A stretch of DNA of 64,000 nt from a virus, in the IMG/VR virus record IMGVR_UViG_3300047443_000115, positions 27,589-91,588 of that record; one strand, given 5' to 3'. Below the pieces are notes generated by a model. That model ran no database searches. It saw only the letters and a program-made list of their open reading frames with translations, and had not been told where the DNA came from. The position numbers and the translations under genes were made by a program. The stretch's first letter is position 1, and each line of letters starts with the position of its first letter. Positions 12,987 through 38,450 of this stretch are shown in pieces.

Positions 12987-13017
12987 GGCGGGTCTCCTTG
13001 CGGGCGGGGCGGGCGGC

Positions 13018-13356: not shown

Positions 13357-13592
13357 GGGCGGGTTTTCCCTGCGATGGCGTCGTCGATCCGGTCGGCGTA
13401 GTCGACGGCGATGCCGTAGGGCGAACACCAGGTCCGCATGTCGATGGCGAGAGCCTGGACGCGTTCGACAGCGTCCTGCGCCTTCTGCGTTGCGGTCTCG
13501 TTGCTAGCGCAGATTTCGGCGATGGTCAGCTCGTCGAAGTTCTCCATGTACCAGCGGGCGCGATCGCTGAGCTCGTCGTAAGGGTTGGCCAC
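13353..13592 (-). CDS. Hypothetical protein
   Basis: 79 aa, GAGGAG RBS. Confidence 0.6.
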   Translation of the reverse strand: MANPYDELSDRARWYMENFDELTIAEICASNETATQKAQDAVERVQALAIDMRTWCSPYGIAVDYADRIDDAIAGKTRP

Positions 13593-13661
13593 AGGCGGGT
13601 GCTCCTCGGGTGCGGGCGGTACGAGGTGCTCAGTCTCTGACTGTAATCATGCACACCCTGG

Positions 13662-13910
13662 GTGACATCCGGGCCAACGACTGCGCAGATTGCACAATCT
13701 CCCCACCGTGCGCCGGTTCAGCCCGCCACACTCAACTCCATGGCGGTCGCGTTGTGGGCGTTGGGTGATGACGAGGCGGAGTTGGCCGAGTGGCTGGCTG
13801 CTCACGACATGCTGCCGGTGGGGCAGCCGGTGCACGGGGTCACGGCGCGGGCCCGGCTGATGCAGCGCTGCGAGCCGCGGGGCGTCGAGGCTGAGCCCGA
13901 GCACGGCTGA
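13662..13910 (+). CDS. Possible small protein (start uncertain)
   Basis: Ends at a hairpin terminator; divergent from 13592. Confidence 0.35.
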   Translation: MTSGPTTAQIAQSPHRAPVQPATLNSMAVALWALGDDEAELAEWLAAHDMLPVGQPVHGVTARARLMQRCEPRGVEAEPEHG

Positions 13911-13935
13911 GGCCCCCGCTTTCGGCGGGGGCCTC
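13909..13935. terminator. Bidirectional hairpin ending the transfer operon
   Basis: GAGGCCCCCGC-tttcg-GCGGGGGCCTC between convergent genes. Confidence 0.7.
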
Positions 13936-13955
13936 GTGGGGCGGGGTGGCGGTCA

Positions 13956-14414
13956 TCACCCTCGGATGTTGGTCCGGTTGTCGATGCGGACGTTGACGTT
14001 GACCTTGCCGGATCCTCCCCCGCCGCCCATGCGCATCAGGTAGACGATGGCGAGGCACACGCCGGTGCCGACGATCGCGCCGGTGGCTTCGGCCATGGCG
14101 TGGAACATCAGGCCGGCGCCCCCTCCGACTCCCACCGCGCAGATACCTCCGGCGACGAGGCGCTTGGGCCACGGGTCGGGCTGGAAGGTAGCGGGGATGG
14201 CGGGTGGTGAGGCTGCGGTCTGTGCCGGCGGGTGGGCGTACAGGCCGACGGGCCCGTTCGGTGTGTCCATGAACGCGTCCGGCGCCGGGCCGGGCATGAG
14301 GCGCCCGTCGGCGGTGCGGGGCGGCGACCAGGCGGGGCGGATGAACGGGCCTTCGGCTTCGTCGATGGTGGGCCACCCGGCAGGCGGGGACGGCGTGGGC
14401 TGCTGTCGGTACAT
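13956..14414 (-). CDS. Pro-rich two-TM protein, Spd-like transfer accessory
   Basis: Directly after traB; Pro-rich N terminus, two TM helices. Confidence 0.6.
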   Translation of the reverse strand: MYRQQPTPSPPAGWPTIDEAEGPFIRPAWSPPRTADGRLMPGPAPDAFMDTPNGPVGLYAHPPAQTAASPPAIPATFQPDPWPKRLVAGGICAVGVGGGAGLMFHAMAEATGAIVGTGVCLAIVYLMRMGGGGGSGKVNVNVRIDNRTNIRG

Positions 14415-14434
14415 GGCGGGCTCCTTGGGTGGGG

Positions 14435-16438
14435 TTAGGCGACGGCTTCTGCGGGGGTCTTGGCGGTAGCCCAGCTACCGCGCTTGATGTTCTGGACGAG
14501 GCCTTCTTCGGCAAGGCGAGCGAGCGTGGTGGACGCGGTGGACAGGGGCGCGTCGACGGCGAGAGCGATGGCACCGGTGTAGGCGTATTCGACGGTGTCG
14601 AGGTGAGCGAGGATCGCCGCCTTGTATGTGGTGCGTGCGGCCTTGGCGGCGGCGGGGGTCTGCGCCGGCATCTTCTGGGGGCTGAAGGTCCTGGCGACGA
14701 CCTGCTGCGGGGTTCGGGCGCCGTCCTTGAGGATCGCCGCCCACTTGGCGTAAGACAGTTCAGCGACCGCGCGGTCTTCGGGGCCGAGGTGCCAGGTCTC
14801 GCCCTTGGTGGCCCACCCGAACACGTCATCGATCAGCGAGGTTCGCATCACTGACGGGCGGGCCTGAGGACCGAGCGCGTAGCCGAGACCAGAGGTCGTG
14901 GTCTTGTCCGGCCACAGCCGCGGCAACTTGTTCGGCGAAACGTCGAACGACGACTGGAACGCAACCTGCCCGGACAGACCCGAGCTGGTACGCAGCACGA
15001 TGACATTGCCCGACGCGACCGAGTCCCGCAGCGGACTGGAGTTGCCGAGCTGGGACAGCAGTGGCATCTGCGTGACCAGGCGCAATTTGCAGCCGCACTT
15101 GCGGCCCATGAGTGCAATGTCCTCGGCGGCTTCGACGGCTAGCGGGTGGCAGGAGAACACGTCGTGGGCTTCGTCGATGGTCAGGGAGTACAGCGGGTCC
15201 CTGCCGTCAGCGACACGGCCGGGCTCGAAGGACCCCTTGCCCTTGCGGGTACGCCCCAGGTGATCGGTCCAGATCATTGAGGCGTACCGCTCGTTGCGGC
15301 CCAGCATCACGTCGCGCATCACCAGCAGTTCGATGACGCCCTCGGTGGCCGAGTCGGCGAAGTGGTCGACGTTGTCCTGCCAGTCGGGCAGGGACTGGCC
15401 GCGCTGCGGGTCGACGACGCGCGACACGATGAGGCCGTCGGCGTGCCGTTCGGTGGCCAGTAGTTCGTCAAGGAGCCGGGACTTGCCGGAGTCGGAGCTT
15501 CCGGAGATGAGGCTATGAACGGCGCCGGAGCCTGGCTTGTAGTGCTGGTACTCGACCGGGATGGCGTCGGCGTAGACGCCGATCATCGAGATCCCCGTCT
15601 CGGGGTTGAATGCGGACGGGCCGGGCCAGTAGTTGAGCTGCTGCAGCGGATTCCGGGGGTACACCGACAGGTGGGCGCGGCGTTCGGAGCCGGTCTCGGT
15701 GCGCTCGATCACAACCGATGAGAGCGGCACGTCGTAGGCGCCCGCGATCTTCACGGCGGCAGAAATCGCGTCGTCGACCGTGAGTAGGCCCGGGGGGAGG
15801 TCGATCAGTGCCTTCCATGCCCCAGGGACGCCCTCGATGCCCTCAGGTGCGATGAGCGCGGAGTCGGGAAGCCGGCGGCCCGGAGCGGCGATGCTCTCGC
15901 GCCAGATCCGCACCCACTCGTCTTCGGTTTCCGCCTCCGTCTCGGCGATGGGGCGGATGCGGTGGTGCCACCACCACGGGCCGCCGAGGACGGCGAGGAA
16001 CCACAGGAAAGTGAAGCCGGGAACGGGCGGCGCCCACGGGCCCACCAGCGTCATCGTCATCAGCAGCGCTAGAGCGGCACCGGTGTTGACGAGGGCGTAG
16101 AACAGCTCGCGGCGCGACAGGCCACGGCCGTTGCGGGTGCGGCGGCGAATCCACCAGGCCAGCGCGATGGCCGCGGCCACGTCGGCGGTCGCGGCGCTGC
16201 GTACACCGCCAGGCGCCAGGTGCATGGCACCCCCGGCGATGTCGACGAGAGCCGCGGCGTAGGCGGGGGCGAGACGCCGACGGTGCTTGATGCCAAACCG
16301 GGCAGCGCGGTGCAGGCCCTGAACGGTCCGCACGGTGCGCTCCAGCCGGATGCGGCGCGCCCTGAAGGGCACGACGGACACCGGGAGCGTCGGAACCTTA
16401 CGGACTCCGGTGAGCAGCTGGGGTGTGGTGTGGTCCAT
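14435..16438 (-). CDS. traB: FtsK/SpoIIIE-like conjugative DNA translocase (TraB type)
   Basis: N-terminal TM segments, Walker A ISGSSDSGKS, Walker B LTIDEAH, GRKCG..LRLVTQ, C-terminal winged HTH. Confidence 0.85.
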   Translation of the reverse strand: MDHTTPQLLTGVRKVPTLPVSVVPFRARRIRLERTVRTVQGLHRAARFGIKHRRRLAPAYAAALVDIAGGAMHLAPGGVRSAATADVAAAIALAWWIRRRTRNGRGLSRRELFYALVNTGAALALLMTMTLVGPWAPPVPGFTFLWFLAVLGGPWWWHHRIRPIAETEAETEDEWVRIWRESIAAPGRRLPDSALIAPEGIEGVPGAWKALIDLPPGLLTVDDAISAAVKIAGAYDVPLSSVVIERTETGSERRAHLSVYPRNPLQQLNYWPGPSAFNPETGISMIGVYADAIPVEYQHYKPGSGAVHSLISGSSDSGKSRLLDELLATERHADGLIVSRVVDPQRGQSLPDWQDNVDHFADSATEGVIELLVMRDVMLGRNERYASMIWTDHLGRTRKGKGSFEPGRVADGRDPLYSLTIDEAHDVFSCHPLAVEAAEDIALMGRKCGCKLRLVTQMPLLSQLGNSSPLRDSVASGNVIVLRTSSGLSGQVAFQSSFDVSPNKLPRLWPDKTTTSGLGYALGPQARPSVMRTSLIDDVFGWATKGETWHLGPEDRAVAELSYAKWAAILKDGARTPQQVVARTFSPQKMPAQTPAAAKAARTTYKAAILAHLDTVEYAYTGAIALAVDAPLSTASTTLARLAEEGLVQNIKRGSWATAKTPAEAVA

Positions 16439-16506
16439 CGGTTCGGGTCTCCTCGCGGTGATTGGCGGCCCGGCCGCAGATGGTGCGGCCGGGCCGGGGC
16501 GGGCTG

Positions 16507-17637
16507 CTAGTCGCCGGTGTAGAAAGCCTTCTCGGCGGCCTGCGGGGTGGAGTCGTGGGCTTCCTTCATCAGGCTGTGCTTGCGGATCACCAGCTCGCGG
16601 GCGTGGCCGGCCTGGCCGCGCAGGAATTCGGCGGCCTGCAGGCGGGTCCGGGCGGCGTCGGAGCGGGACTTGAACGGCTCGATGAGGGAGTTGATGGCGC
16701 CGAGGGATTCGCCGTCCAGGCCGAGGGAGGCGAGGTTCGAGACGAGGCTCTCGATGTTGGCAACTTCGGCTTCGGAGCGCTGCACGTCGGCGGTGGCGTC
16801 GTCGATGTTCGCGGTCGCTTCGACGGCGATTGCTTCGAGTCCAGCAATGACGCCGGTGAAGTTCGCAGCGTCGGCGGTGGTGGTGGTGATAGGCACGGTC
16901 AGGGGGGTCCTTCCGTTTTTGACGGCCGGGATGGCCGTCCTTTTGTGGGATGCGATGTCGAGAACCGGGGCGAGTCCCGGCTCGGTGCTGTCGGGGCTTG
17001 GTTTGTCGTCGCGGGTGGCGGCCGGGCACAGGGGTGTGCCGTCGGCGTGAGAGAACGGGGCTTCCATCGCCGTGGAGCCGGCGCCGGGTACGACTCGGGT
17101 GGGCTTCTTCTTCACGACGGACTTGTTGCACACCGAGCAGGCGAAGTCGGGCGCCGGGTCTTCGCCGACGGTGATGACGGGGATGGCCTTCTTGACGAAG
17201 TCCGGCACGTCAAGGTCGTCTTTCAGGGGCGCTGCGGCGTTCTTGTTGTCGAGGGCGGTGATGACGACCTCGACTGTGGCTGCAGGCGCCGGGGCGTCCT
17301 CGACCTTGGGGGTCTTGGTCGCATCAACCTTGGGGTCGTCGACCGGGCGGCCGAGCTTCTTCGACGTCCAGTCCCACCCGCGGCTCCAACCGGCCTTGGT
17401 GCCGCGGCCGAAACCGCGGGTTGCCGTCCCCAGACTGCGAGCGGTAACGACACCGACGGCCGCACTGGTGGCGCCGAACCCGATCCCGGCGATCTCGCTG
17501 CCGGACCGCTCCCGCGCTTCTTCCTCCTTTCGGGTCTTCAGTTCCTGGTAGTGGGCATAGGGGGCGATGGCGGCACTCTTGGCGCCTTGGTAGGCGCCGG
17601 TGAAGAACGCCACGAGGATGATCAGTAGGAGTTCCAT
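16507..17637 (-). CDS. Membrane-anchored transfer-region protein
   Basis: N-terminal TM, low-complexity middle, helical C terminus; upstream of traB. Confidence 0.6.
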   Translation of the reverse strand: MELLLIILVAFFTGAYQGAKSAAIAPYAHYQELKTRKEEEARERSGSEIAGIGFGATSAAVGVVTARSLGTATRGFGRGTKAGWSRGWDWTSKKLGRPVDDPKVDATKTPKVEDAPAPAATVEVVITALDNKNAAAPLKDDLDVPDFVKKAIPVITVGEDPAPDFACSVCNKSVVKKKPTRVVPGAGSTAMEAPFSHADGTPLCPAATRDDKPSPDSTEPGLAPVLDIASHKRTAIPAVKNGRTPLTVPITTTTADAANFTGVIAGLEAIAVEATANIDDATADVQRSEAEVANIESLVSNLASLGLDGESLGAINSLIEPFKSRSDAARTRLQAAEFLRGQAGHARELVIRKHSLMKEAHDSTPQAAEKAFYTGD

Positions 17638-17638
17638 G

Positions 17639-18163
17639 TCAGCGCGCCCCAAACATCCACGCGAGGGGCCAGCTGATGATGCTGGCCCAGATGGCGCAGA
17701 CGCCCATGACGATGGCCCCGGCGGTGCCCGGGATCGTGGCGCCGGCGAGAGGGGTGGCGGCGGCGTAGGCCAGGGTGCGGTTAGTGACCTTGTGGCCGTG
17801 ACCGCCTCCGCCATTACCGCGTCCGGCGCCCTTTGCGCCTGCGCCCTTGGTGCCTGCGGATGCGCCGCCCTTGTGGGGCCACAGGTCGGCGATGAGTACG
17901 GCGACGACGACCAGGCCGGTGATGCCGAGCACGACGGTGCCGGTCCACTGGCCGATGAATCCGCCGAGCCACCCGTCGGCCGTTGAAATCATGGCTCGCA
18001 CGGATCGGCCGAGCGGCGTCCCGATGATCGCCGTGACTCCGGCGATCACCAGGCCCACTGTGAGTCGCGGCCACGCCTTGCGGCCGACCGTGCGGAGCAG
18101 AGCAGCGATAACGAGGGCGATCACGCCTACGCCGACGCTGATCCCTGCATGGAGCAGGTTCAT
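17639..18163 (-). CDS. Multi-TM membrane protein (Spd-like)
   Basis: About four hydrophobic segments; AAAGGAGG RBS. Confidence 0.65.
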   Translation of the reverse strand: MNLLHAGISVGVGVIALVIAALLRTVGRKAWPRLTVGLVIAGVTAIIGTPLGRSVRAMISTADGWLGGFIGQWTGTVVLGITGLVVVAVLIADLWPHKGGASAGTKGAGAKGAGRGNGGGGHGHKVTNRTLAYAAATPLAGATIPGTAGAIVMGVCAIWASIISWPLAWMFGAR

Positions 18164-18293
18164 GAGCGTCCTCCTTTGGATGTTGTTGCAGTTACGGACA
18201 GTTGCGGTATCCTCGCGCGCGCCCGCAGGCGCGTCGCCTGACGCGTAGGAACTGGGGACTTCACTTCCGGCAGCGAATGTGAATTGTGAAGAG

Positions 18294-18902
18294 TCACGGA
18301 GAGCCACCATTCGACGGGCCCGCAACCGCCCACAAGCCGGGGCCGATCCTCGCTACGGCCCCCCTGTTCGCGAGCCGGTTCAAGACCGTGGAGACCGACG
18401 ACTTGTTCAGACGAAGGGCATCCGCCAGTGCGGTGGTCGTCTCGGGAGACGGTGCTTGAGCGAGGTGGGCCAGAACCGATGCCGTGACCGCAGGCCTGGC
18501 GGGGGGCGTCACGCAGGCGGCTGCGCTGATCACCTTCGCTTGCGTTCGCATCTTCGGCGGCGGCGTGGCCCTGACCAGGCGTTTCGGCGTCGATCGCGCC
18601 GGGAGTGGCCACTGCAGGTGACCGGCCCGAACGACTTCGCGCTCGACGATCTCCACAGCGTCTCGATCGCCGAAGTCGAACCACTCGCCGCGGGTTCGGA
18701 ATCGGCGCAGAATGCTATGGAGCTTCTGCTCCAGATCCCTTCCGCCTGCGGTTTTCCACATCACGCACAGAGGGACGGGGCAGCCGCCCTGAAGGGATAC
18801 GAGTCGGCGATCGATCTTCGTCGTTGTTCCGATCTTCACATACCGGAAGTCCGGAGACCCAATGACGTAGACCACCGAGCCCGCTTGCCCTGCCCCGGTC
18901 AC
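18294..18902 (-). CDS. GIY-YIG (T5orf172/MUG113-like) nuclease fused to C-terminal HTH
   Basis: VYVIG...VKIGTT...RRL..LQ...LEQKLH...RGEWF; C-terminal LADALRLNKSSVSTVLNRL. Confidence 0.8.
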   Translation of the reverse strand: MTGAGQAGSVVYVIGSPDFRYVKIGTTTKIDRRLVSLQGGCPVPLCVMWKTAGGRDLEQKLHSILRRFRTRGEWFDFGDRDAVEIVEREVVRAGHLQWPLPARSTPKRLVRATPPPKMRTQAKVISAAACVTPPARPAVTASVLAHLAQAPSPETTTALADALRLNKSSVSTVLNRLANRGAVARIGPGLWAVAGPSNGGSP

Positions 18903-19150
18903 AGCCCGTCCTCCCTGCTCACGGCGCCCTGCAGTCCGACCAGCGTGGTTGCCAACTGCATCCACGCCTCGCCCTGCTGCTGGGGCGGGAGGTCGTTGAT
19001 GATGCGGCGCAGGTGATCCCAGGAGGCAATGGCCTTCTCTTCCGGCGTGATGGCCGCGTCGTACTTGGCCTGCCAGAACACGGTGAGGTTGTCTCGCCGG
19101 CGCTGGGCTCGGGTCTTCTTGCCCGCGCGAGTCGTCTTGATCATTTCCAT
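18899..19150 (-). CDS. Hypothetical protein
   Basis: 83 aa, coupled. Confidence 0.6.
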   Translation of the reverse strand: MEMIKTTRAGKKTRAQRRRDNLTVFWQAKYDAAITPEEKAIASWDHLRRIINDLPPQQQGEAWMQLATTLVGLQGAVSREDGL

Positions 19151-19158
19151 GTCTCCCG

Positions 19159-20277
19159 TCAGCTACCGGTGATGGAGCGGACGTTGGGCGATCCGAGCGC
19201 GGCGAGCTCGGGGTGGTCGGCTTCGATGGCGTCGCGGATCCGCTGGCACGACGAGCGGGAGATCGTCTTGTCGGCGAGCTTCCCGGCGACAAGCGCGTCC
19301 CGGATCTCGGTCCACTCCGGGCGCTTGCCAAGATCGGCGTACAGGGCGCGGACGCGCTCACGGCGCCGGTCGGCGACCGACTTCACGGCGCTCTTCTTGG
19401 GCTTGCCCTGAGCGCGCTCGCGGCGCTCGGTCGCGGGCTTCGGCGGGCGCCCATCCTGGGCGCGCTCAACGCGCTCGGGTTGAGCGCTCACCGGGCGCTC
19501 GATCTGGGCGCGCTCAACCACGGCTTCGGTGAGCGCCGGGCGCTCGGGTTCGGCGCTCACGATCGGGCGCTCAACCTCGACGACTGTGGGCGCATGGACG
19601 GGCGCCTCGGCGGTCGTCGCAACACGCTCGCGCCGCCGCGCCTTCTGCTCTCGCGGCGGCGCGATCATGAGGTGCATTCGCCACAGGATGAGAGACGCGA
19701 TCGACGCCACCACCGCGATCAACCACCACTGCGGCTTACCGCCCGCCGTGAGACCGAACAGGCCCACCGCAGCCAGGTGATAGATCACGTTCGCGGCGAT
19801 GGTGAGACCGATCGCCTGCAGGATGTCGCGGTGCCGGCGGAACGCCTGGATGACGTACACGTCGATGACGAGCGGCAGCAGCCACGCCACGCCGCCGCCG
19901 AAGCCGACCATCCTCGCGAGCGAGTACTCACCCGACGCGGTGAGACCGACGGCGCCGGCGATGACGACACGGGCGGCCCATACGTCGAGCTGGGCGGCGG
20001 TCTTCTTCTTCTGATCCGTCTCGGCGGCGGCCTCGTCCCGGATCCGCTGGGCTTCGGCACGCGCCCGGTCGAGCTCCGCCTTGGCGGTGTCGCGGACCCG
20101 GTCGGCATCCTTGCCGGCCTTCTCGTGCATCTCGTTGGCCTTGGCGAGCAGGGCCGCGGCATCGGCGCGGTCTGCTTCGGCTTGCGGGTCGGGCTGGGGC
20201 GGCGTGACGGGCCATACTTCGCCGAACACGGGCATGGCAAGCGGCTTGGGGGTGCCGTTCACCTGGTTGGCGGTCAC
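19159..20277 (-). CDS. SpdB-like (DUF2637-type) membrane protein with C-terminal HTH
   Basis: Coiled coil, four TM helices (LTASGEYSLARMVGFGGGVAWLLPLVIDVY), repeat linker, helical C terminus. Confidence 0.7.
   Translation of the reverse strand: MTANQVNGTPKPLAMPVFGEVWPVTPPQPDPQAEADRADAAALLAKANEMHEKAGKDADRVRDTAKAELDRARAEAQRIRDEAAAETDQKKKTAAQLDVWAARVVIAGAVGLTASGEYSLARMVGFGGGVAWLLPLVIDVYVIQAFRRHRDILQAIGLTIAANVIYHLAAVGLFGLTAGGKPQWWLIAVVASIASLILWRMHLMIAPPREQKARRRERVATTAEAPVHAPTVVEVERPIVSAEPERPALTEAVVERAQIERPVSAQPERVERAQDGRPPKPATERRERAQGKPKKSAVKSVADRRRERVRALYADLGKRPEWTEIRDALVAGKLADKTISRSSCQRIRDAIEADHPELAALGSPNVRSITGS
19354..19572 (-). repeat. Cluster of GAGCGC short repeats
   Basis: 12 copies of GCGCTC on + strand plus 3 in the opposite orientation in ~220 bp. 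Confidence 0.8.
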
Positions 20278-20312
20278 GTCGTTCTCCTTCATGGGGTGGG
20301 GGTGTGGGTGGG

Positions 20313-20543
20313 TCAGTGCTCGGCGCTCTGGTCCTCGGCGACGGTGAACTTCGCCTGCCGCCAGGCGCCCCAAAAGTAGGCGAGGCTGTTGAAGACACCG
20401 AGGAAGGCGGACCCCACCGCGAACACACCCACGGCGAACGGCAGGTGGTGGATGTACAGCTCGCGGGCGAGGAGCAGGGCGAAGACGAGAGCGATGGCGG
20501 CGAAGATCCCGTAGGCGATGGCGGGCTTGTCGGTGGCGGTCAC
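20313..20543 (-). CDS. Small two-TM membrane protein
   Basis: 76 aa, hydrophobic. Confidence 0.65.
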   Translation of the reverse strand: MTATDKPAIAYGIFAAIALVFALLLARELYIHHLPFAVGVFAVGSAFLGVFNSLAYFWGAWRQAKFTVAEDQSAEH

Positions 20544-20632
20544 GGGGTTCCTTCCGGGATTCGGGTCGGGTTCGGGGTCGCTGGCCGTTCTCCTTGGTGC
20601 TCACCCCGGGGGTTGAGCACCGCGGTCAGCAG

Positions 20633-20863
20633 TCAGCGGGTGCGGACTCGCCGCGAGTCGGTGATGGAGTCGGCAAGGAGTCGGGTGGCGTCGATACCGC
20701 GCGGCACCTCGAAGTCGTGGCGGCGGGGGCACCGGAGACGGGCCTTGCCGCCAGCGCGGCCGTAGACAGTGAGGCCCGTGCGGGCCCTGCATGACGGGCA
20801 GACGGCAGCGACGCCGCCACCGGTGATCTCTCCTGCGTATGTGGTCTCGTACTGCTCGGCCAT
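20633..20863 (-). CDS. Small zinc-ribbon protein
   Basis: CPSC...CPRRH. Confidence 0.6.
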   Translation of the reverse strand: MAEQYETTYAGEITGGGVAAVCPSCRARTGLTVYGRAGGKARLRCPRRHDFEVPRGIDATRLLADSITDSRRVRTR

Positions 20864-20887
20864 GGGGTTCCTTCCGGATGGAGTGAG

Positions 20888-21343
20888 TCAGCGGTTGTGG
20901 ATGTGCCGGGCCCCGGTTTCCCGGAGTGCGGTGTGTGCCTGCCGGGCGTGCAGTCCGGCGGTGTCGAGGTGGTCGGGGGTGGCGTCGCCGAGAGCCATGG
21001 CCGCATCGACGGCGCTCTGCGCGAGGGCGATGAGCCGGGTGTCGTCGGTGGCCATGTGGAGGGTGTCCATGGCGCTGGTGACGGCGGACCGGGCCGCGTA
21101 CCGGGCGGTGCGGGCCTCGGCGGTGTCGGGCTGCTGCTCCCGGCGGGCGACGTGCTTCAGGTACTGCTGCTCCCGATGCCGGACCAGTGCGGCCAGCAGT
21201 GCGGGGATCGCGTCGGCCACGGCCTGACGGCGCCGCTCGGCCTTCGCCGCCTCGGTGGTGCGGGTGGAGGTGAGGTGCTGCAGTCCGCCGGCCACGACGC
21301 CACCCAGCAGGGTGCCGATGACGGCAACGATCGTGGCGAGCAT
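20888..21343 (-). CDS. kilB: KilB-like protein
   Basis: MLATIVAVIGTLLGGVVAGGLQH...AVADAIPALLAALVRHREQQY resembles pIJ101 KilB (recognised from memory). Confidence 0.75.
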   Translation of the reverse strand: MLATIVAVIGTLLGGVVAGGLQHLTSTRTTEAAKAERRRQAVADAIPALLAALVRHREQQYLKHVARREQQPDTAEARTARYAARSAVTSAMDTLHMATDDTRLIALAQSAVDAAMALGDATPDHLDTAGLHARQAHTALRETGARHIHNR

Positions 21344-21483
21344 GTGGGGCTCCTTTCGGGTTCGATTGCGGGTCGGGTCGTGCACCGGGGTCCTGGGCCG
21401 GGGGGAGCGTTCACCCAGGACCCCGGCGGTCTTTGCCGGGCTTGGCAGGTCGTCGGAGCGGTGGTCCGTGCAAGCCCGGCGGA

Positions 21484-23595
21484 TCAAGGGGTGCGGCGGG
21501 TGATGCGGAACCCGGTGCCGTCCTCGGTCGTGTTGCCTCGGACTTCGCGCACCGTGTGGCCGTCCAGGCCGTCGTAGGCGTTCTGGAAGCCGGGCAGCAC
21601 GATCGAGGTGGATCCGTCCGGGCGGGTGAGCTCGTAGGCGGTCACTTCGTGGGACTGGCGGTCGGCGGGCATGGGGTCAGTCGCCGTAGTTCTCGGGGAG
21701 TCCGTGGCGTCGGAGCCACTCGCTCTCCATGGAGTTGGAGCCCTGTGAGTCGTAGTAGGCGCGGGCGTCGTTGACCTCGTCGTCGGTCATCTCGCCGGAG
21801 GTCTTCGGGTACCAGGACTGCTGGGTGTGGTCGGTGCTCATGGGGTTCCTCTCGGGTGTGGCGGATGGTCGGACTGGTCAGACGAGCTGCAGGTCTTCGT
21901 TGGCGTCGTACAGCAGCCGGTCCGCCTGGGTGAGCAGCCGCTTCCGGGTCTTGGTGTCCTTCGGCCCGAGGTGCTGCACGGCGCGGAGGACGTCGGCGGC
22001 CTGGGTAAGGCATTCGCGTTCGTAGCCGAGCGGGCTGAGCCGGTTGAGGACCGCGTCGAGGAAGCCGGTGAACCCGGCCTCGGTGCAGTCGGCGGCGTCG
22101 AGGGTGATACCGACGGCGTCGGCGATGGTTACGGCGTAGTCGGTGATCAGGGAGTCGACGGTGATGGGCTTGGTCTTCACGGGGGTCCTCTCGGGATCAG
22201 TAGGCGGGGCCGTCGACCTGGCGGACGTACAGCCGCACGCCGGGGTGTTCGGCCTGGGTGCGCAGTACGTCCTGGACGATGCTGTTGAGCGATCCCGGGC
22301 CGCCGACACCGCCGAAGCTGAGGAGCTCGCCGGTGGCGTCGTTGTAGACCCGGTAGTTCATGTCGACGTCGGAGGTGTCCTTGCGGTCCGGGAGGGGCTT
22401 GCCGTTCCAGTGGTCGCTCATCGTCCGGTCCCTCCCCGGCGCTCTCGGGTGGGTGCGATGAGCGGCTTGCCGGGAATGCAGGGGCGTCCGGCGAGGTCGT
22501 CACGGGCGCGTTCGGCATCCGCCTTGTCGTGGGCCGTTCCGAGTTCGATGAGACCGTCCTTCGTCCACGTGTAGACCGACCACGCCATCACTGGCCTCCC
22601 TGCTGGCGTCGGGCTTCGTCGATCTTGCGCTGGGCCTCGGCGATCGCGGCCTGACGCTGCCGGACCTGCTCGGCCAGCGCGCGGGCAGCGGCGCCCTGAT
22701 CGGATGCGGTGGACATGGTCACCACCGCCACTGCTGGATCGCCCGGCGACGCGCGGCGGAGCGCCTCGTCAGCCTGCGAGAGCTGGCCACCACCCGGGCG
22801 GGGCAGCGGAGGCAGGGCGGGGACGTCGTCGCGGTGGTCGGCGGCGCTCACGACTGCCCCCTCAGCGTCTCGCGCAGGCTGACGTTCGCCCGGTGGGTCT
22901 CCGCCAGCTCGTACCGGCGGTCGAAGGGCAGGTGCGTGGTGGCCAGCAGGTGCCCCGTCTCGCGGACCGCCTCGTCGGCGGCGGCAAACGTCGTGGCCGT
23001 GGACGGCTGCGGGAGGTCGATGCGGGCGCTCATCGCACACCCCGCTTCGGCTTCCGTCGGCACCCGGCGGCGTGCTCCTCAGCGTCCCGGCGGGCGAACG
23101 GCAGACCCGCATAGGCAGCTGGGCTGTCGCTGCGGTGACCGGCACTGCACTCCCACCGGTACGGGCTGTACGCGCGCTGCTCCGCCAGCACCTGGGCCGT
23201 GGCGCCGGAGCGCGTCGGGTAGGCCATGCCGTCGATCGGGGTCGCGGTCACAGGTCGGCCCCCACAAGCTCCAGCTCGGCCTCGACACGCAGGTGCTCGT
23301 CGGCCTCCCACTTGGCGAGGGCCGCTTCGGCGTCGTCCATCGCGGCGGCGAGCACCGGCGTCGGGATGCGGCGGGCGGTCAGCGCGAACGACTCGTACAC
23401 CTCGAAGTCAGCGGCCTGCCAGTCGGCGACCGGAACCTCGGCGGTCAGTACGCCGGCGTCGGCAGTGTGGAACACGATCGGCGCGAACACCTGCGCGGAC
23501 GGCTTCGGCGGGTTCGAGGCACCGGGAGTGCGCTTCGGGAGCGGCGCGGCGGACATGGCGGGGGCGGTCGGGCGGAGGGCGGTGGCGGTGGTCAT
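21484..23595 (-). CDS. Run of small hypothetical genes (21484-21672, 21677-21841, 21878-22180, 22197-22421, 22418-22588, 22588-22716, 22848-23033, 23030-23251, 23248-23595)
   Basis: Tightly packed ORFs, coupled or preceded by AGGA RBS; no recognisable motifs. Confidence 0.55.
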
Positions 23596-23834
23596 GATGC
23601 GAGCTCCTCTACGGCGGCGGGGACACCCAGGAATTCGAGGACTGCGGAGGGCGGGATCTTCGTCAGGGTCTGGCGAACCTGACCGCTGCCACGACTGGTG
23701 GAGCGCAGGCGGCCGGACTTGACGGCCCGGTAGACCGTGGCCTGGTGGACGCCGATCAACTCGGCGACCTCGGGAACGGTGAGGGAATCCCTCAGCTCGG
23801 CGAGCACTGCGTCGAGTGCGGCTCGGCCAGTCAT
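23592..23834 (-). CDS. Excisionase-like HTH_17 DNA-binding protein; first gene of the transfer operon
   Basis: LTVPEVAELIGVHQATVYRAVKSGRL. Confidence 0.8.
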   Translation of the reverse strand: MTGRAALDAVLAELRDSLTVPEVAELIGVHQATVYRAVKSGRLRSTSRGSGQVRQTLTKIPPSAVLEFLGVPAAVEELAS

Positions 23835-23890
23835 GCGCAGTCCTCCAGATGGGTGCGGAAAGGTGAAGCTGCAGGTGAAGACCACCTGTG

Positions 23891-23957
23891 CAGCTTGGGT
23901 ATCCAAGTGCGATAGGACGACCATAGAGCGCCCGCCTTGGGTATGCAAGTATTGCGA
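23891..23957 (-). promoter_or_regulatory. Leftward promoter with two operators
   Basis: TTGCAT-N17-TATGGT; near-palindromes CTTGGGTATGCAAG (23936) and CTTGGGTATCCAAG (23894). Confidence 0.75.
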
Positions 23958-24034
23958 GTGGGTCACCTTGGAGCGACCTCAAGTCATTGGCGAGGAGGTG
24001 TGGCCTGAGGGGCAGGGAAGGACGTTCGTAGTTC

Positions 24035-24083
24035 GTCTAGTCGCGTTTGACTTGACCTGTCTACCGAACTTAGACTTAGACTC
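24035..24083 (+). promoter_or_regulatory. Leaderless hicAB promoter with operators
   Basis: TTGACT-N18-TAGACT, 7 nt before ATG; GTCTA-N7-T(A/T)GAC twice. Confidence 0.65.
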
Positions 24084-24299
24084 ATGAAGTACCGGGATCT
24101 GATCAGCAAGATCAGGAAAGCCGCGAAGCAGCTAGACATCCCCTTCGTCAAACAGCGACAGAAGGGGAGCCATCAGGTGTGGCTTTGCGGCACGACGCCC
24201 GTCGTCATCCCGAAGCACGGCGGTGAGATCAACGAGATCACTGCGATCAGCATCTGCAAGACCCTGGAAGAACCGCTCGGAGAGGGGTGGTGGAAGTGA
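24084..24299 (+). CDS. hicA: HicA toxin (mRNA interferase)
   Basis: 71 aa, KGSHQ motif, VVIPKH. Confidence 0.9.
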   Translation: MKYRDLISKIRKAAKQLDIPFVKQRQKGSHQVWLCGTTPVVIPKHGGEINEITAISICKTLEEPLGEGWWK

Positions 24300-24691
24300 A
24301 GACCTACCGCGTCAAGGCCCGCCGTGTCGGCAATTGGTGGGCACTCGAAGTGCCCGACCTGCCTGGCGTCTTCAGCCAGACGAAGCGGCTTGATCGGGCC
24401 GACAAGGAAGCGCGCGAGGCCATCGCGGTCATGCTCAACGTTGAACCGGACACGATCGGCGTCGACATCGATGTAGACCTTCCAAGGGAAGCGCGGGACG
24501 TCTTGCTGATGGCCCGACGCGCCCGCCAGGCCGCAAAGGAAGCCGCCGACGCGGAGCGGAAGGCGATGCAGGAAGCCGCCGCAGTTCTCACGCGCGATCT
24601 CAGCCAGCGCGATGCGGGGCGCGTCATGGGCGTCTCGTTCCAGCGCATCTCGCAGCTGCTCAACCCGATGCATGGCAAGCACGCCGGCTAG
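24296..24691 (+). CDS. hicB: HicB antitoxin with C-terminal HTH
   Basis: WWALEVPDLPGVFSQ...AREAI; SQRDAGRVMGVSFQRISQL. Confidence 0.9.
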   Translation: MKTYRVKARRVGNWWALEVPDLPGVFSQTKRLDRADKEAREAIAVMLNVEPDTIGVDIDVDLPREARDVLLMARRARQAAKEAADAERKAMQEAAAVLTRDLSQRDAGRVMGVSFQRISQLLNPMHGKHAG

Positions 24692-24698
24692 CCACTAC

Positions 24699-24744
24699 AC
24701 GCACTGAAGGCCCCCGCTCGCTTGAGCGGGGGCCTTCAGTGCGT
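24699..24744. terminator. Bidirectional terminator
   Basis: 21-bp perfect inverted repeat between convergent hicB and gntR. Confidence 0.85.
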
Positions 24745-24757
24745 TCGGAGAGTGGGG

Positions 24758-25531
24758 CTATACGTCGATCACGTATCGAAAGACATGGCGGTCAGTCGGC
24801 ACGCGGGAGTCGAGCACCTCCAACGGCTTGCCGCTGGAGTCGTAGGCCGTCCGCAGGATCCGCGCGATGGGAACGCCGGCCGGGATGTCCAACTGCTCGG
24901 TCTCAAAGGGCTGGGGCATGCGGATGTCGAGGTCTTCGACGAACTGGACGATACGGCGGCCGATCGGGCCGTCGGGGTTCTCTATTACCGCATTGACGCC
25001 GCCCTTGATCGGGCGAGGCTCTGCGATCGGAGTCCCGGCCACGAGGTCGCGATCGTAGTAGCCGTCCACCAGTTGCATGGGGCTGTCGTCCACAGCGAAG
25101 AGGCGGCGGCGAACCAGGACGGGCGTGCCGGTCTCGACGCCAAGCCTGCTGGCGATCTCCTCCGGGGCCGGAACCTCGGACACTTCCGTAATGGTCTGCT
25201 TGGCCCGCTGGCCCTGCGCTGCAGCCTCGGCGTTGTAGTTCGAGACGCCGGTGGCTCTGCGCTCGCGGTAGATACTGCCGACCTGGAGCATGCTGACGTG
25301 CGGTCGTTCGCGGACGAACGCGCCCTTGCCTTGGTGCGTGGTCACGAGCCCCTCCATTCGGAGGAGGGCAATGCCCTTGCGTACCGTCGCCCGGGTCACA
25401 CCGAAGCGTTCCGCCAGTTGGTGCTCCGAAGTGAGCTTGTCCCCGGGGGCCAGATCGCCCCGAAGGATCTCCGCACGCAGCTCGTTGGCGACCCGCTTGA
25501 ACGGGTGCTCCTGGTTCGGGTTGGGTGACAT
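24758..25531 (-). CDS. GntR/HutC (UTRA) repressor, KorSA/TraR-like
   Basis: LAPGDKLTSEHQLAERFGVTRATVRKG...GKGAFV plus UTRA domain. Confidence 0.9.
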   Translation of the reverse strand: MSPNPNQEHPFKRVANELRAEILRGDLAPGDKLTSEHQLAERFGVTRATVRKGIALLRMEGLVTTHQGKGAFVRERPHVSMLQVGSIYRERRATGVSNYNAEAAAQGQRAKQTITEVSEVPAPEEIASRLGVETGTPVLVRRRLFAVDDSPMQLVDGYYDRDLVAGTPIAEPRPIKGGVNAVIENPDGPIGRRIVQFVEDLDIRMPQPFETEQLDIPAGVPIARILRTAYDSSGKPLEVLDSRVPTDRHVFRYVIDV

Positions 25532-25589
25532 CGCGCTCCTGATGGCCTGGATATACAAGCCAGAGTAGCCGCATCGGGAGCGAATGGGA

Positions 25590-26009
25590 CTACTCCTGTG
25601 CGGCGCACCATCCTGACCAGCGGGTTACCGTGATTTCAATGACGGGGCCGCTCGGTCGAGTCTCGCGATATTGCTCGTACTTGTATATCAAAGCGCTGAC
25701 AAGTTCAGCCGCATCCTCATTCGCCAGCACGCGTGCGTGGCCATCGGCGCGCACCCACCACAGCCGATCCCAGTCGTCCTTGTAGCGGTCCACTAGGAGA
25801 GCCACGGCAGGGTTCTCCTCAATGTTCCGGAGGCGCTTCAGATCCGTGTGGCGCTTCGGCTTGTGGTCGACAGCGATGGTGACCGTGTCGCCGTCGACAG
25901 CGAAGGTCGCGGGGACGAGGTGAGGCCGGCCAGCCGCGTCGACGGTGGCCAAGCGGAGGACTCGCGCGTCGGCAAAGCGGGCTCTGCACTGCTCCTCGGT
26001 CATCTGCAT
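25590..26009 (-). CDS. PPOX-class putative F420-dependent split-barrel protein (TIGR03668/Rv0121-like)
   Basis: LATVDAAGRPHLVP...AVDHKPK...LKRLRNIEENP...DDWDRLWWVRADG. Confidence 0.88.
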   Translation of the reverse strand: MQMTEEQCRARFADARVLRLATVDAAGRPHLVPATFAVDGDTVTIAVDHKPKRHTDLKRLRNIEENPAVALLVDRYKDDWDRLWWVRADGHARVLANEDAAELVSALIYKYEQYRETRPSGPVIEITVTRWSGWCAAQE

Positions 26010-26044
26010 ACCGAGACGGTACCCAGCCGCCCGGATTGCTTCAT

Positions 26045-26109
26045 TCGCAGTACTTGCATACCCATGCTGCGCAGGCTACGGTCATCGAGTCAGCTTGGGT
26101 ATCCAAGTG
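26045..26109 (+). promoter_or_regulatory. Rightward promoter with two operators (mirror of 23891-23957)
   Basis: TTGCAT-N17-TACGGT; 19-bp exact and 19/20-bp inverted matches to the leftward promoter. Confidence 0.75.
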
Positions 26110-26227
26110 ATTCCCGGCGCTAGGCATGCAAAAGGCCGGACGGTTGCCACCGTCCGGCCGAAGATCAAGGCGGGGTGCAACCCGCCGATCAGTTGAGGTC
26201 CAACCTGCCTGGAAGGAGCGCTCTTCT

Positions 26228-26557
26228 GTGAGCGTACAACAGAGCACGTCCGTTCGACCCACCGAAACCTCTGAGGCCTCCGTCACCCCTCCCGCCGTCA
26301 CGCTTCTGGCGAAGCTGTGGCAGTCGGCACCCCTCTCCCTGCTCCTCGAAGCGGCGAACGCCCGCGTCCTGGACTCGGAGATCGACGACGACTACTTCTT
26401 CGGCAGTGCGGTGCAGCGCAAGGACGGGCGTCTGTTCCTCGTCATGCCGACCGGCCGGCCCGAGGCGGAGCGGGACACGATCGTCCGCGACCTCATGGCG
26501 CGGATGCTCCGCGTACCGCTGCCGGGCATGACGCCGACCAGGCGAGTGGCCGCATGA
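26228..26557 (+). CDS. Hypothetical protein
   Basis: AAGGAG RBS, GTG start. Confidence 0.6.
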   Translation: MSVQQSTSVRPTETSEASVTPPAVTLLAKLWQSAPLSLLLEAANARVLDSEIDDDYFFGSAVQRKDGRLFLVMPTGRPEAERDTIVRDLMARMLRVPLPGMTPTRRVAA

Positions 26558-26889
26558 CCGACGGCAACATCCCCGACTACTACATGGAGCGCGCGCGCTT
26601 CCTCGCCACCGTCAAGGACATTGGCGAGGGGACCGAGGTGGCCGACGCGGCGCTCGACCTGATGATCAGGCTGGAGAGTTCCATCCAGTCACCCTGGGCA
26701 GTCACAGACCCGTTCGCCGCCGAGCGCTACCTCGTGGCACGCGGAGCCGACCCGGACGTCGCATCCGAGGAGGGTGTCGTCTTTGAGATCCAGATGCGCG
26801 CCCTCGTCAGCATCGGCCTCGGACGCCCCGTCCAGTCGTTCAGCGAGATCGCCGGCTGGATCGCCGAACACGTCGACACCACCCCGTAG
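26554..26889 (+). CDS. Hypothetical acidic protein
   Basis: ATGA-coupled. Confidence 0.6.
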   Translation: MTDGNIPDYYMERARFLATVKDIGEGTEVADAALDLMIRLESSIQSPWAVTDPFAAERYLVARGADPDVASEEGVVFEIQMRALVSIGLGRPVQSFSEIAGWIAEHVDTTP

Positions 26890-26981
26890 TTGTCCGTCCC
26901 TGCCCGTACAGTCGCATGACCGCCCCCGACTGGATTCACGTCCAATCGGGGGCGGTTCGCGGACCGGTAAGGAGTCCACGC

Positions 26982-28061
26982 ATGACAACCGCATCGCGGC
27001 GGTCAGTTCGTTCGCTTGCCTGTGAGGCTGAGTTTCGGGCCCGCGTAGAAGAACTGGGGGGCTGCGTCCTCGAACCTGAATGGCTTGGGGTGCTGAATCG
27101 CCATCGCATCCGGTGCGCCCAAGGCCATGAATATGCACCGAGACCACGGTACGTCCTTCAAGGCGGCGGCATCTGTCGCACTTGCTCCGGCCTTGACCCG
27201 CGCGCAGTTGAGGCCGCCTTCCGGGCCCGCATAGCAGGGCTCGGCGGCACCATCCTGGAACCCAAATGGCTCGGGGCTGATCGGCCTCACCGCGTCCTTT
27301 GTGTCGCTGGACACGAGAGCGCGCCTCGCCCGAGCGATGTCCGCCAGGGGGATGGGATATGCAAGACGTGCGCAGGAACGGACCCACGTGCGGCCGAAGC
27401 TGCGTTCCGAGCCCGCGTCGAGGAGCTAGGCGGCACTGTCCTTGAGCCCGTATGGCTTGGGGCGCAGAAGCCTCACCGCATCCGGTGTGCCGCTGGGCAC
27501 GAAGTAATGCAGCGGCCCAACAGCATTCAGCAAGGGAGAGGCCTTTGCCGCACTTGCGCCGGGAATGATCCGAAGGTTGCCGAGGCGGAATTCCGGGCGC
27601 GCGTGGAAGAGTTGGGAGGCGTTGTTCTCGAACCCGTGTGGCTTGGAGTCAAGACGCCTCATCGAATCAGATGCTCCGCCGGGCACGAAAGCACGCCGCG
27701 ACCGTCAGCTGTGCAGCAGGGTGGAGGTATCTGCAGGCTCTGTATGGGACAGGTCTGGGATGCGTTCTACGTCCTCCTCGACGAGGAGGAGCAGATGGTG
27801 AAGTTCGGGATCACATCTGGTAACGCTCGGCCCCGCCTTGCCGGCCATGCACGGGACGGATACTGCACCCGCGTGCGGCTCATGACGGACCTGCCACTGG
27901 GTGCCGCACGGGGGCTAGAGAAGACAGTGCTCGCCACCCTGGACCTCGCCGGCGTTGAGCCGGTCCGTGGTCGCGAGTATTTCCATGTGTCGGCACTGCC
28001 CGTCATCCTTGATATCGCCGACAACTACCCGATCCCGGCGTCTAAGCCCCGACCCGCCTGA
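26982..28061 (+). CDS. Four zinc-ribbon repeats plus C-terminal GIY-YIG-like domain (putative endonuclease)
   Basis: 4 x ~60 aa FRARV..LGG.VLEP.WLG...HRIRC..GHE...RP....QG.GIC..C; YVL...VKFGIT...RL..H. Confidence 0.75.
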   Translation: MTTASRRSVRSLACEAEFRARVEELGGCVLEPEWLGVLNRHRIRCAQGHEYAPRPRYVLQGGGICRTCSGLDPRAVEAAFRARIAGLGGTILEPKWLGADRPHRVLCVAGHESAPRPSDVRQGDGICKTCAGTDPRAAEAAFRARVEELGGTVLEPVWLGAQKPHRIRCAAGHEVMQRPNSIQQGRGLCRTCAGNDPKVAEAEFRARVEELGGVVLEPVWLGVKTPHRIRCSAGHESTPRPSAVQQGGGICRLCMGQVWDAFYVLLDEEEQMVKFGITSGNARPRLAGHARDGYCTRVRLMTDLPLGAARGLEKTVLATLDLAGVEPVRGREYFHVSALPVILDIADNYPIPASKPRPA

Positions 28062-28293
28062 ACATGAGCAGCCACACGTCCCGGATCGGCGAGTCCTGCC
28101 CGGCTGGCCGTGCCCATTCCAACCGCCAGCCGTAGTGCTCGACCGCTTCGATGGTGTCGGCGAGGTCGGTCAGTTCGGGTCTCTGGGTGGCTTTTACGAG
28201 CGCCCGCCACACGAACACGGTCCCGCCGGCCTCGGCTCGGTCGCGGGCGGCGGTGGCGTAGGGCATCTTCGACTGCTTGTCGCTGATCGTCAT
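28042..28293 (-). CDS. Hypothetical protein
   Basis: 83 aa, protein-like composition. Confidence 0.5.
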   Translation of the reverse strand: MTISDKQSKMPYATAARDRAEAGGTVFVWRALVKATQRPELTDLADTIEAVEHYGWRLEWARPAGQDSPIRDVWLLMFRRVGA

Positions 28294-28433
28294 CGCGGCA
28301 GCCTAGTGGCCCCGCCCCGAACACCCGCGCGCGTGACCGCTATCACCCGGTCGACCTGCACCGATGCCGTCAACAGGGGTGCGGTCGCGGGCGGTTCGCG
28401 GGATACTGGAAGTACCACAAACCTGGAGAAATC

Positions 28434-29000: not shown

Positions 29001-29002
29001 CC

Positions 29003-38264: not shown

Positions 38265-38450
38265 GACAGGGCGAGCTGGGGGAAGTTGACGTCCTCCCCG
38301 ACTAAATGCCGGGGATCCCCGCCTGCTCCCACCGCATGGGGGAGGGCTTCGGGTGGGTTGCTGCTTCGTCGCGCGGTGCCGGCACGAGTACCGGTCTTAC
38401 CTGCGCTCCACGGCCGTTTACGGTCTCCGCCCGTCCGGCGGCGACCTTTC
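38265..38450 (-). ncRNA. Predicted omega/reRNA (scaffold overlapping tnpB 3' end plus flanking guide); 5' end approximate
   Basis: Established TnpB architecture; right end ...GGACGTCAAC followed by TTCCCCCAGCTCGCCCTGTC. Confidence 0.6.

Follow-up and report, generated by a model that had tools for sequence, protein, structure and literature searches.

A GntR-linked, TraB-type cassette in an exchangeable genome slot of a temperate actinophage: a candidate phage-borne transfer module

Virus record IMGVR_UViG_3300047443_000115 of the IMG/VR database (91,588 bp, classed as 'linear', CheckV completeness of 97%) belongs to a temperate phage that carries, between its early genes and its packaging genes, a cassette resembling the transfer regions of actinomycete conjugative elements. 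Homology, synteny and conservation suggest, with a confidence we would put somewhat above even, that this cassette is a functional, GntR-controlled TraB transfer or spread module of the phage. The analysis covered the right-hand 64 kb of the record (bases 27589–91588, G000:C1), referred to here as the window, and coordinates are window positions unless the record is named. At the DNA level the cassette occupies a variable slot, 13950–26130, and its tra operon is transcribed leftward from position 23834. From its promoter the operon runs through an HTH_17 gene, a series of small open reading frames (ORFs), a protein at the DUF2637 position, an 83-amino-acid (aa) protein, a nuclease, a protein with four transmembrane (TM) segments and a 381-aa protein to the TraB-like gene and a final two-TM protein. 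The initial annotation, which had drawn the block as far as 28061, was right about the leftward tra operon; 26916–28061, however, lies in a separate rightward operon outside the slot. The left boundary of the slot and the operon comprise the following features (wHTH, winged helix-turn-helix; GC3, GC content at third codon positions):

13740–13910, plus strand: 56-aa ORF convergent with the tra operon
13905–13940 (approximately), no strand: GC-rich hairpin at the left slot boundary, between the end of the tra operon and the convergent 56-aa ORF (sequence read)
13956–14414, minus strand: Pro/Gly-rich protein of 152 aa with two predicted TM segments, the last gene of the operon (hydropathy scan)
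14435–16438, minus strand: TraB-like double-stranded DNA (dsDNA) translocase of 667 aa (profile, motifs and model)
16507–17652, minus strand: 381-aa protein with an N-terminal TM segment, directly upstream of traB (synteny with TraB loci)
17639–18163, minus strand: 174-aa protein with four predicted TM segments, second conserved partner (hydropathy scan, synteny)
18294–18890 (end approximate), minus strand: T5orf172/MUG113 (GIY-YIG-type) nuclease with a MarR-type wHTH (PF13455, E 6e-11; PF10544, E 7e-8; PF12802, E 5e-7)
18899–19150, minus strand: conserved tra-core protein of 83 aa (synteny)
19159–20292, minus strand: 377-aa membrane protein at the Spd/DUF2637 position, three TM segments (hydropathy scan, PF10935)
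20313–23595, minus strand: about 11 small ORFs (GC3 frame analysis)
23592–23834, minus strand: HTH_17 protein, Xis/MerR-like, first gene of the operon (PF12728, E 3e-10, 40.5 bits)

Across an alignment of 26 homologues the Walker A residues of the TraB-like protein (G313, G318 and K319) and its Walker B glutamate (E423, within a TIDEAH motif) were invariant. The profile built from this alignment matched the FtsK motor 2IUU (E 5e-11) as well as EccC, with many winged-helix matches at the C-terminus (positions 564–641). An AlphaFold model of the protein (predicted local distance difference test score of 84) consisted of an N-terminal helical bundle (helices 26–160), an alpha/beta motor and a C-terminal wHTH at 595–658, and its best Foldseek matches, at E 1e-13 to 1e-14 (TM-score by target 0.59–0.67), were FtsK motors and TcpA, a coupling protein of conjugation. 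In addition, the C-terminus matched an ArsR-type HTH (E 5e-4), and one TM segment exceeded the hydropathy threshold. On the strength of the invariant motifs, profile, model and structural matches we read the product of 14435–16438 as a TraB-type, FtsK-like dsDNA translocase lying outside the narrow NCBIfam equivalog, and the FtsK-like TraB with intact Walker motifs and wHTH named in the initial annotation is thereby borne out by the 26-homologue alignment, the 2IUU profile and the model.

Homologues of this TraB on Streptomyces and Kitasatospora plasmids and in loci resembling the integrative and conjugative elements of actinomycetes (AICEs) were 36–52% identical, the closest of them (45–52%) being chromosomal, in AICE-like loci. 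Of the two TraB profile sets that were built, A1 was too diverse for scanning contigs and the closer set A2 was used. A core of four genes (83 aa, four-TM, ~ 300–380 aa and TraB) proved syntenic with the AICE-like loci. The 381-aa partner has syntenic homologues beside TraB in L005, L007, L008, L010, L011, L013 and L019 (phmmer E 2e-51 to 2e-12), the 174-aa four-TM protein in AICE-like and plasmid loci (E 4e-32 to 5e-4), and the 83-aa protein in L003, L004, L007, L008, L010, L011, L013, L017 and L019. The 377-aa membrane protein stands where DUF2637 genes stand in L004 and L011.

The gene order in L008 and L011 runs from the 83-aa protein through the four-TM and ~ 300-aa proteins to TraB, after which comes a DnaB_N+DUF3987 replication protein. 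A true DUF2637 gene lies upstream in L011 and an Arm-type tyrosine integrase downstream (Pfam), a tblastn integrase match occurs at the same place in L008, and L013 displays the same tblastn pattern. These loci are AICEs of the textbook kind, and no phage genes lie within 10 kb of them. AICEs (pSAM2, SLP1 and pMEA300 type; here L008, L011 and L013) thus offer close TraB counterparts at 45–47% identity and the same core order as the window, from the DUF2637 position through the 83-aa, four-TM and ~ 300-aa proteins to TraB, with a GntR-family regulator upstream. Unlike L008 and L011, the window has neither a Rep nor an integrase gene after TraB, shows no flanking repeats, and holds its cassette embedded among virion genes. 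In the Kitasatospora/Streptomyces plasmid loci a regulator (GntR in L003, a wHTH protein in L004) is divergent from an operon of the same type, in which small ORFs precede a large protein that takes the DUF2637 position (and is annotated as DUF2637 in L004), with TraB last.

No Rep (RepSA, prim-pol or DUF3987 type) or Int family was found by Pfam, NCBIfam and PHROG scans in any ORF of 13950–28300, and no convincing att-like direct repeats or terminal inverted repeats flanked the block. Because Rep, Int and flanking repeats are all missing, the block is not a complete inserted AICE, in agreement with the initial annotation. A 21-bp repeat (record position 1385 versus window position 54550) was considered as a candidate att pair and rejected, its location being inconsistent with that of int.

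Upstream of the operon lies a dedicated control region, bounded by two outward-facing promoters:

23894–23950, minus strand: leftward promoter (TTGCAT at 23948–23943, 17-nt spacer, TATGGT at 23925–23920; sequence read)
24084–24299, plus strand: HicA toxin (PF07927, 27.1 bits, cut-off 27)
24287–24691, plus strand: HicB antitoxin (PF15919, 26.6 bits, just below the cut-off of 27)
24699–24744, no strand: perfect hairpin with 21-nt arms where hicB and gntR converge (inverted repeat I8, 100% complementary)
24758–25558, minus strand: GntR/HutC-type repressor with wHTH and UTRA domains (PF00392, E 1e-18, 67 bits; PF07702, E 4e-23, 82 bits)
25590–26009, minus strand: PNPOx-like protein directly upstream of gntR (PF01243, E 4e-20)
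26052–26108, plus strand: rightward twin promoter (TTGCAT at 26054–26059, 17-nt spacer, TACGGT at 26077–26082; sequence read)
26228–28061, plus strand: rightward operon of two proteins followed by a 381-aa Zn-ribbon-repeat protein (GC3 frame analysis)

Both domains of the GntR protein scored above the Pfam cut-offs, and the protein also matched phrog_10724 (E 9e-50); by analogy with the plasmid repressors it is a candidate Kor/TraR analogue. The proposed GntR-UTRA repressor, and with it the idea that the block has its own regulation, was therefore upheld. Its placement next to the operon was not, since the HicA/HicB pair intervenes on the opposite strand. In the 64 kb there are four copies of the 15-nt palindrome CTTGGGTATSCAAGT (0.05 matches expected), all of them at the two twin promoters: at 23894 and 23936 and at 26052 (minus strand) and 26094, with a spacing of 42 nt in each pair (repeat family D13, inverted pair I1). 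At each promoter one palindrome lies over the -35 hexamer and the other ~ 12–15 nt downstream of the -10 hexamer. The promoter near 23.9 kb points leftward into the tra operon and the one near 26.06 kb rightward into 26228–28061, enclosing hicA/hicB, the perfect hairpin, gntR and the PNPOx-like gene.

The slot recurs in related uncultivated proviruses. In G001, whose TerL is 99% identical and whose late genes are 93% identical at the DNA level, the alignment with the window covers 13600–13949 (95%) and 20541–20978 (84–97%), with a different 7.3-kb core in between. That core encodes a 740-aa protein with TM segments, Walker A and B motifs and a C-terminal HTH-like tail, which hhalign related to the TraB profile (probability 97.6%, E 5e-12, 24% identity); none of the ORFs of the G001 cassette had a Pfam match, and an hmmsearch that used the A1 profile did not pick up TraB-like ORFs of the G001/G035 type. 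The provirus G035 is 80.7 kb long, has direct terminal repeats and was rated 100% complete. It encodes its own TerL, portal, major head (capsid) protein, tape measure and integrase, and shares 36 of 150 proteins with the record, the virion module excepted. Its DNA matches the window at 13590–13949 (91%), stopping at 13949, then at 21878–22180, and resumes at 26131; its slot holds a TraB-like gene of the G001 type (94%) and a different GntR-like gene (28%). Operator-like repeats were not found in the G035 slot. The small-ORF region is partly conserved, at 20541–21482 in G001 and at 21878–22180 in G035.

Among 25 TerL relatives, window-type TraB was found in none, and a G001-type TraB-like ORF (open frame of 641–940 aa) in 11, including 7 of the 14 that were at least 90% complete. 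In all 11 this ORF lies 1.7–13 kb upstream of TerL on the same strand; two of the 11 scored above the Pfam FtsK_SpoIIIE cut-off, and in G003 a true DUF2637 gene stands beside it. Because relatives share the flanks and carry TraB-like genes, the slot is a feature of the lineage with exchangeable content, and the possibility of a one-off insertion with boundary repeats was not borne out. The G001/G035-type ORFs (717–799 aa) occupy the same slot upstream of TerL and have the same TM, ATPase and C-terminal HTH-like architecture as the window TraB, but differ in being related to it at the profile level only. Judged from its genes, the version of the cassette that the slot holds here is AICE-like. 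As the TraB core of the window is closer to AICE genes (45–52%) than to those of its own phage relatives (recognised by hhalign only), the comparison points to exchange of the cassette with AICEs or plasmids inside a conserved slot. Of the domesticated module proposed in the initial annotation, the maintenance of the slot in the lineage thus stands, and a TraB core nearer to AICE genes than to those of related phages qualifies the term.

Five IMG/VR 'viral' records, G028 and G030–G033 (loci L117–L122; 56–152 kb), also carry window-type TraB (39–47% identity). In G032, TerL and the TraB gene, the latter near the end of the record, are 44 kb apart, and some of these five records may combine a prophage with a neighbouring AICE in a single prediction.

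A close counterpart of the cassette was not found among 50,697 deposited phage genomes: tblastn gave no match for the window TraB (at E 1e-5), nor for the G001-type TraB, and queries of the G014 and G003 types gave remote matches only, to Gilgamesh ('FtsK-like DNA translocase') and WXIN. Megablast with 13000–29000 produced no phage match and, among plasmids, no more than a 130-bp match, located in a small ORF. On actinomycete plasmids the window TraB had 92 matches, of at most 38% identity.

Several smaller features of the cassette and its borders deserve description. The stretch 13590–13949 (the 56-aa ORF and flanking non-coding DNA) is 91–95% identical in G001 and G035, against 77–88% for its neighbours, and probably contains the divergent promoters of the 56-aa ORF and of the next leftward operon. 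The 152-aa protein had a DUF2076 match below threshold only, and its Atlas neighbours were actinobacterial clusters below the level of counting. The small ORFs include a 76-aa two-TM protein (20313–20543) and a one-TM protein (20888–21487; both by hydropathy scan), and none of the ~ 11 had a family match in the Pfam, NCBIfam and PHROG scans. The GIY-YIG-type nuclease gene interrupts the tra core, and the AICE relatives lack it there. Its wHTH and that of TraB are 38% identical, and the nuclease may be of the homing type and share the DNA specificity of TraB. In the rightward operon, the protein identity of 26228–26889 to G035 is 85–96%, and the 381-aa product of 26916–28061 (plus strand) consists of four tandem 62-aa Zn-ribbon-like repeats (186-nt repeat family D1) and matches two PHROG families, phrog_681 at E 9e-21 (annotated as endonuclease) and phrog_559 at E 6e-15 (annotated as HNH endonuclease). 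Rfam gave no match in 12000–30000.

The surrounding genome is that of a tailed phage:

569–2002, minus strand: portal, SPP1-type (PF05133, E 6e-59)
2007–3626, minus strand: large terminase TerL (phrog_19179, E 2e-163)
4135–4920: HNH endonuclease gene
62226–63536, plus strand: tyrosine integrase
G000:C1:1022–1450 of the record, left of the window: resolvase N-terminal-domain fragment
G000:C1:4963–5943 of the record, left of the window: second tyrosine recombinase, XerC-like

TerL is 62% identical to that of Streptomyces phage Kromp and 58% to those of phiSASD1 and Dubu, and the record contains, at 8–28 kb, a 1552-aa ORF of tape-measure size together with head and tail ORFs. The temperate phage with intact terminase and portal described initially is thus confirmed by PF05133, phrog_19179, the integrase and the tape-measure-sized ORF. 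The GC content of the window is 65–73%, and nearly all genes are oriented leftward. No ParB_N or AAA_31 match was obtained in the 91.6-kb record, in a search in which the control genomes did score. Since the complete relative G035 is collinear across both ends of the record, these ends are adjacent in the circular form. The element is a ~ 92-kb temperate siphovirus-type phage, probably of a Streptomyces-like host, with two tyrosine recombinases and without ParAB, and it is highly mosaic, with many HNH genes and one TnpB gene. The latter, of IS605 OrfB/TnpB type, lies in the early region (38302–39573, minus strand; HTH_OrfB, OrfB_IS605 and Cas12f1-like TNB). The XerC-like recombinase has relatives in L019 (37% identity) and, less closely, in L005 (31% over 135 aa), where they lie a few kb downstream of TraB, and pSLE1, a plasmid considered below, also has one (37%). 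A dense cluster of the 8-mers TTCACTGA, TTCAGTGA and CAGTGAAT (4, 3 and 3 copies) at 44810–44990, in a low-GC region with two HNH endonuclease genes, could be an origin or an array of binding sites. ARAGORN called a 100-nt tRNA-Arg(TCG) at 55158–55257 (plus strand) overlapping coding ORFs of both strands, a call that is doubtful because of its unusual length.

The best-known counterparts of the cassette are the tra-spd regions of Streptomyces plasmids. In pSVH1 (TraB/TraR/Spd), pIJ101 (Tra/KorA/Kil/Spd) and SCP2, transfer relies on one FtsK-like translocase of dsDNA, which carries a wHTH at its C-terminus. Such regions also encode small membrane proteins for spread, as well as a repressor of the GntR family whose palindromic operators lie at the tra promoter. 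The window shares with these plasmids the FtsK-like translocase and its wHTH, the small membrane proteins and the GntR repressor with palindromes, and differs from them in its weak sequence similarity (54 versus 800 bits for NF041214) and in having no clt or TraB recognition sequence (TRS) array and no KilB that could be recognised.

Elements combining such a region with virion genes are on record. The plasmid-phage pZL12/phiZL12 was described by Zhong et al. in 2010 (J Bacteriol 192:3747) and the plasmid-phage pFP4 by Chen et al. in 2012 (Plasmid 68:170). Both have been described as conjugating and as producing infective particles (PMC4170104, PMC3583192). Transfer of pZL12 is reported to require the major tra gene together with two genes next to it, and Tra and clt of Streptomyces conjugative plasmids are treated in the same source (PMC3583192). 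For comparison we used a sequenced relative of pZL12, pSLE1 (NZ_LN831788.1), which was annotated from pZL12 owing to high homology and synteny (PMC4487206). In pSLE1 a GntR gene is followed by small ORFs, by genes for membrane proteins and by that of a 774-aa Tra, directly after which come the genes for terminase, portal and capsid, and the Tra of pSLE1 matches the window TraB family (hidden Markov model E 3e-44).

As here, pZL12, pFP4 and pSLE1 are ~ 86–92 kb in size and combine a tailed-phage virion set with GntR, small ORFs, membrane proteins and an FtsK-like Tra of 670–770 aa just upstream of the terminase. The tra gene of pZL12 and its two adjacent genes parallel the conserved three-gene core that ends in the window TraB, and pSLE1 likewise has integrase genes, DUF6221, a 3'-5' exonuclease, a cytosine methylase and a GIY-YIG nuclease. 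The differences are considerable: only 9 of 150 predicted proteins of the record match pSLE1, with the TraB proteins 24% identical; the TerL of the record belongs to another lineage (nearest Kromp, phiSASD1 and Dubu) and has no close plasmid relative; and pSLE1 has ParAB, of which none was found in the record. In addition, gntR is not divergent from the operon, but sits in a hicAB-gntR-pnpox island between the twin promoters. The record therefore shares with the plasmid-phage class the virion genes and a GntR-linked Tra module upstream of the terminase, and lacks its ParAB and sequence relatedness. In view of the missing ParA and ParB it probably persists by integrating and not as a plasmid, and given also the few proteins shared with pSLE1 and the other TerL lineage, it represents an independent, probably integrating form of an already known hybrid type. 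The concept of a conjugating phage is consequently not new, with pZL12 (2010) and pFP4 (2012) preceding and pSLE1 having the same layout, and the novelty claimed in the initial annotation was overstated in light of these three elements. The idea of conjugating plasmid-phages was not discussed in recent phage-plasmid reviews, and in the literature conjugation has not yet been shown for an integrating phage without ParAB.

If the cassette works as its relatives do, the GntR/HutC-type repressor would bind the 15-nt palindromes at both outward promoters, one driving the tra operon and the other the rightward operon. On derepression TraB would form an FtsK-like ring at the membrane, its winged helix would recognise a putative clt on excised or replicating phage DNA, and the ring would pump double-stranded phage DNA into the neighbouring hypha. 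The membrane partners would then aid spread across septa, the outcome being capsid-free transmission beside infection, as reported for pZL12 and pFP4.

A number of results weigh against a functional transfer module. The TraB-like protein scored 54 bits (E 1e-14) with the plasmid_TraB family NF041214, far below the curated cut-off of 800, and this family also scores on chromosomal FtsK in nine control genomes. With PF01580, which some members of the family carry, it scored 10.9 bits against a cut-off of 24. No homologue of the TraB cassette exceeded 52% identity. The SpdB-like label given initially to 19159–20292 holds in so far as this is a membrane protein at the DUF2637 position. Its match to DUF2637 (PF10935; profile positions 24–129 of 161) reached 20 bits (E 3e-5), near but below the cut-off of 22.8, its pairwise similarity to the DUF2637 protein of L011 is weak (E 0.01–0.04), and Atlas leads to DUF2637/SpdB clusters scored < 0.9, below the level of counting. 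The KilB label could not be reproduced: no KilB family occurred among the Pfam, NCBIfam and PHROG matches of the scanned block ORFs, a search that included no direct comparison with KilB sequences. The nuclease gene within the tra core could disturb expression of the operon. The proposal that the GntR protein binds CTTGGGTATSCAAGT draws on its analogy to the Kor/TraR repressors that Streptomyces plasmids encode.

Nor did 8-mer clustering of the block reveal a convincing clt/TRS array, the best array being coding. Exact and one-mismatch clustering left a sole clt-like candidate, ~ 11 copies of GGCGCTCA (one mismatch allowed) within ~ 250 bp (19319–19575) in the 3' half of the DUF2637-like gene. 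This array encodes an ERP/ERA peptide repeat, has about twice the copy count of any other 8-mer cluster of the block, and found no matching array in the relatives.

Among the alternatives, the one that survives best, to which we would give a modest but real chance, is that the TraB/Spd cassette serves the infection cycle, moving replicating phage DNA across septa into adjoining compartments of a mycelium once the phage has infected or been induced, rather than mating between mycelia. A TraB-like ORF lying directly upstream of the packaging genes and on their strand, in 11 of the 25 relatives and in pSLE1, would fit a part of the middle or late programme. Cultured Streptomyces phages have likewise been reported with FtsK/SpoIIIE-like proteins (PMC13587820), among them the 'FtsK-like DNA translocase' of Gilgamesh. 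Such a role sits less well with a cassette that has its own repressor, operators and promoter apart from the late operon, as well as a terminal hairpin, and whose closest relatives are AICE conjugation genes. In pSVH1 and pIJ101, spread within the mycelium and transfer between mycelia use the same machinery, and because plasmids employ it for both, intramycelial spread and mating overlap as explanations.

We regard it as rather unlikely that the cassette is passive cargo, that is, a functionless and decaying AICE or plasmid transfer fragment recently recombined into the slot. Such a history would account for a window-type TraB absent from all 25 TerL relatives and with its nearest kin in AICEs, for the lack of Rep and Int in the cassette, for the homing-type nuclease gene that landed inside it, and is in keeping with a highly mosaic phage with many HNH genes and TnpB. 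Decay is nevertheless hard to reconcile with core ORFs that are all full length, invariant catalytic residues, a GC content agreeing with that of the phage and an intact twin operator/promoter architecture, and the cassette sits in the exact slot where relatives carry an analogous set of TraB-like and GntR-like genes.

A role of the FtsK-like pump and its membrane partners in exclusion of, or defence against, superinfecting phage or incoming plasmid DNA seems improbable: defence genes are frequent in the accessory slots of prophages, the island also contains a HicAB pair, and HerA/FtsK-type ATPases occur in defence systems, with HerA complexes among the weaker Foldseek matches of the TraB model, but the best fold and profile matches, from searches that did not extend to the PADLOC library, are FtsK and TcpA, not HerA, and it is with the conjugative modules of plasmids and AICEs that the cassette is syntenic. 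Finally, prophages and AICEs integrate at similar sites and may be found in tandem, and in some other IMG/VR records, such as G032, TraB is far from the virion genes; a mis-assembly or mis-drawn provirus joining a prophage and a neighbouring AICE is nonetheless barely credible here, where the cassette lies between phage early genes and terminase, two independent relatives, G001 and G035, are collinear across both junctions, and G035 has terminal repeats and is rated complete.

Returning to the regulated transfer module as our favoured explanation, a wider proposal can be made tentatively, and we would not put it at even chances. A broad group of uncultivated temperate actinophages may keep a transfer slot upstream of the packaging genes and swap TraB/Spd/GntR cassettes with AICEs and plasmids, giving regulated capsid-free spread between and within mycelia and forming a third TraB-dependent conjugative class beside plasmids and AICEs. 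The very different TraB-like cassettes in the same slot suggest an ongoing exchange of modules between phages and conjugative elements. If the cassette described here works, it would equip a chromosomally integrating phage with two transmission routes, virions and hyphal mating, which would give a new view of host range, receptor resistance and the spread of lysogens in Streptomyces, and would blur the line between AICE and prophage.

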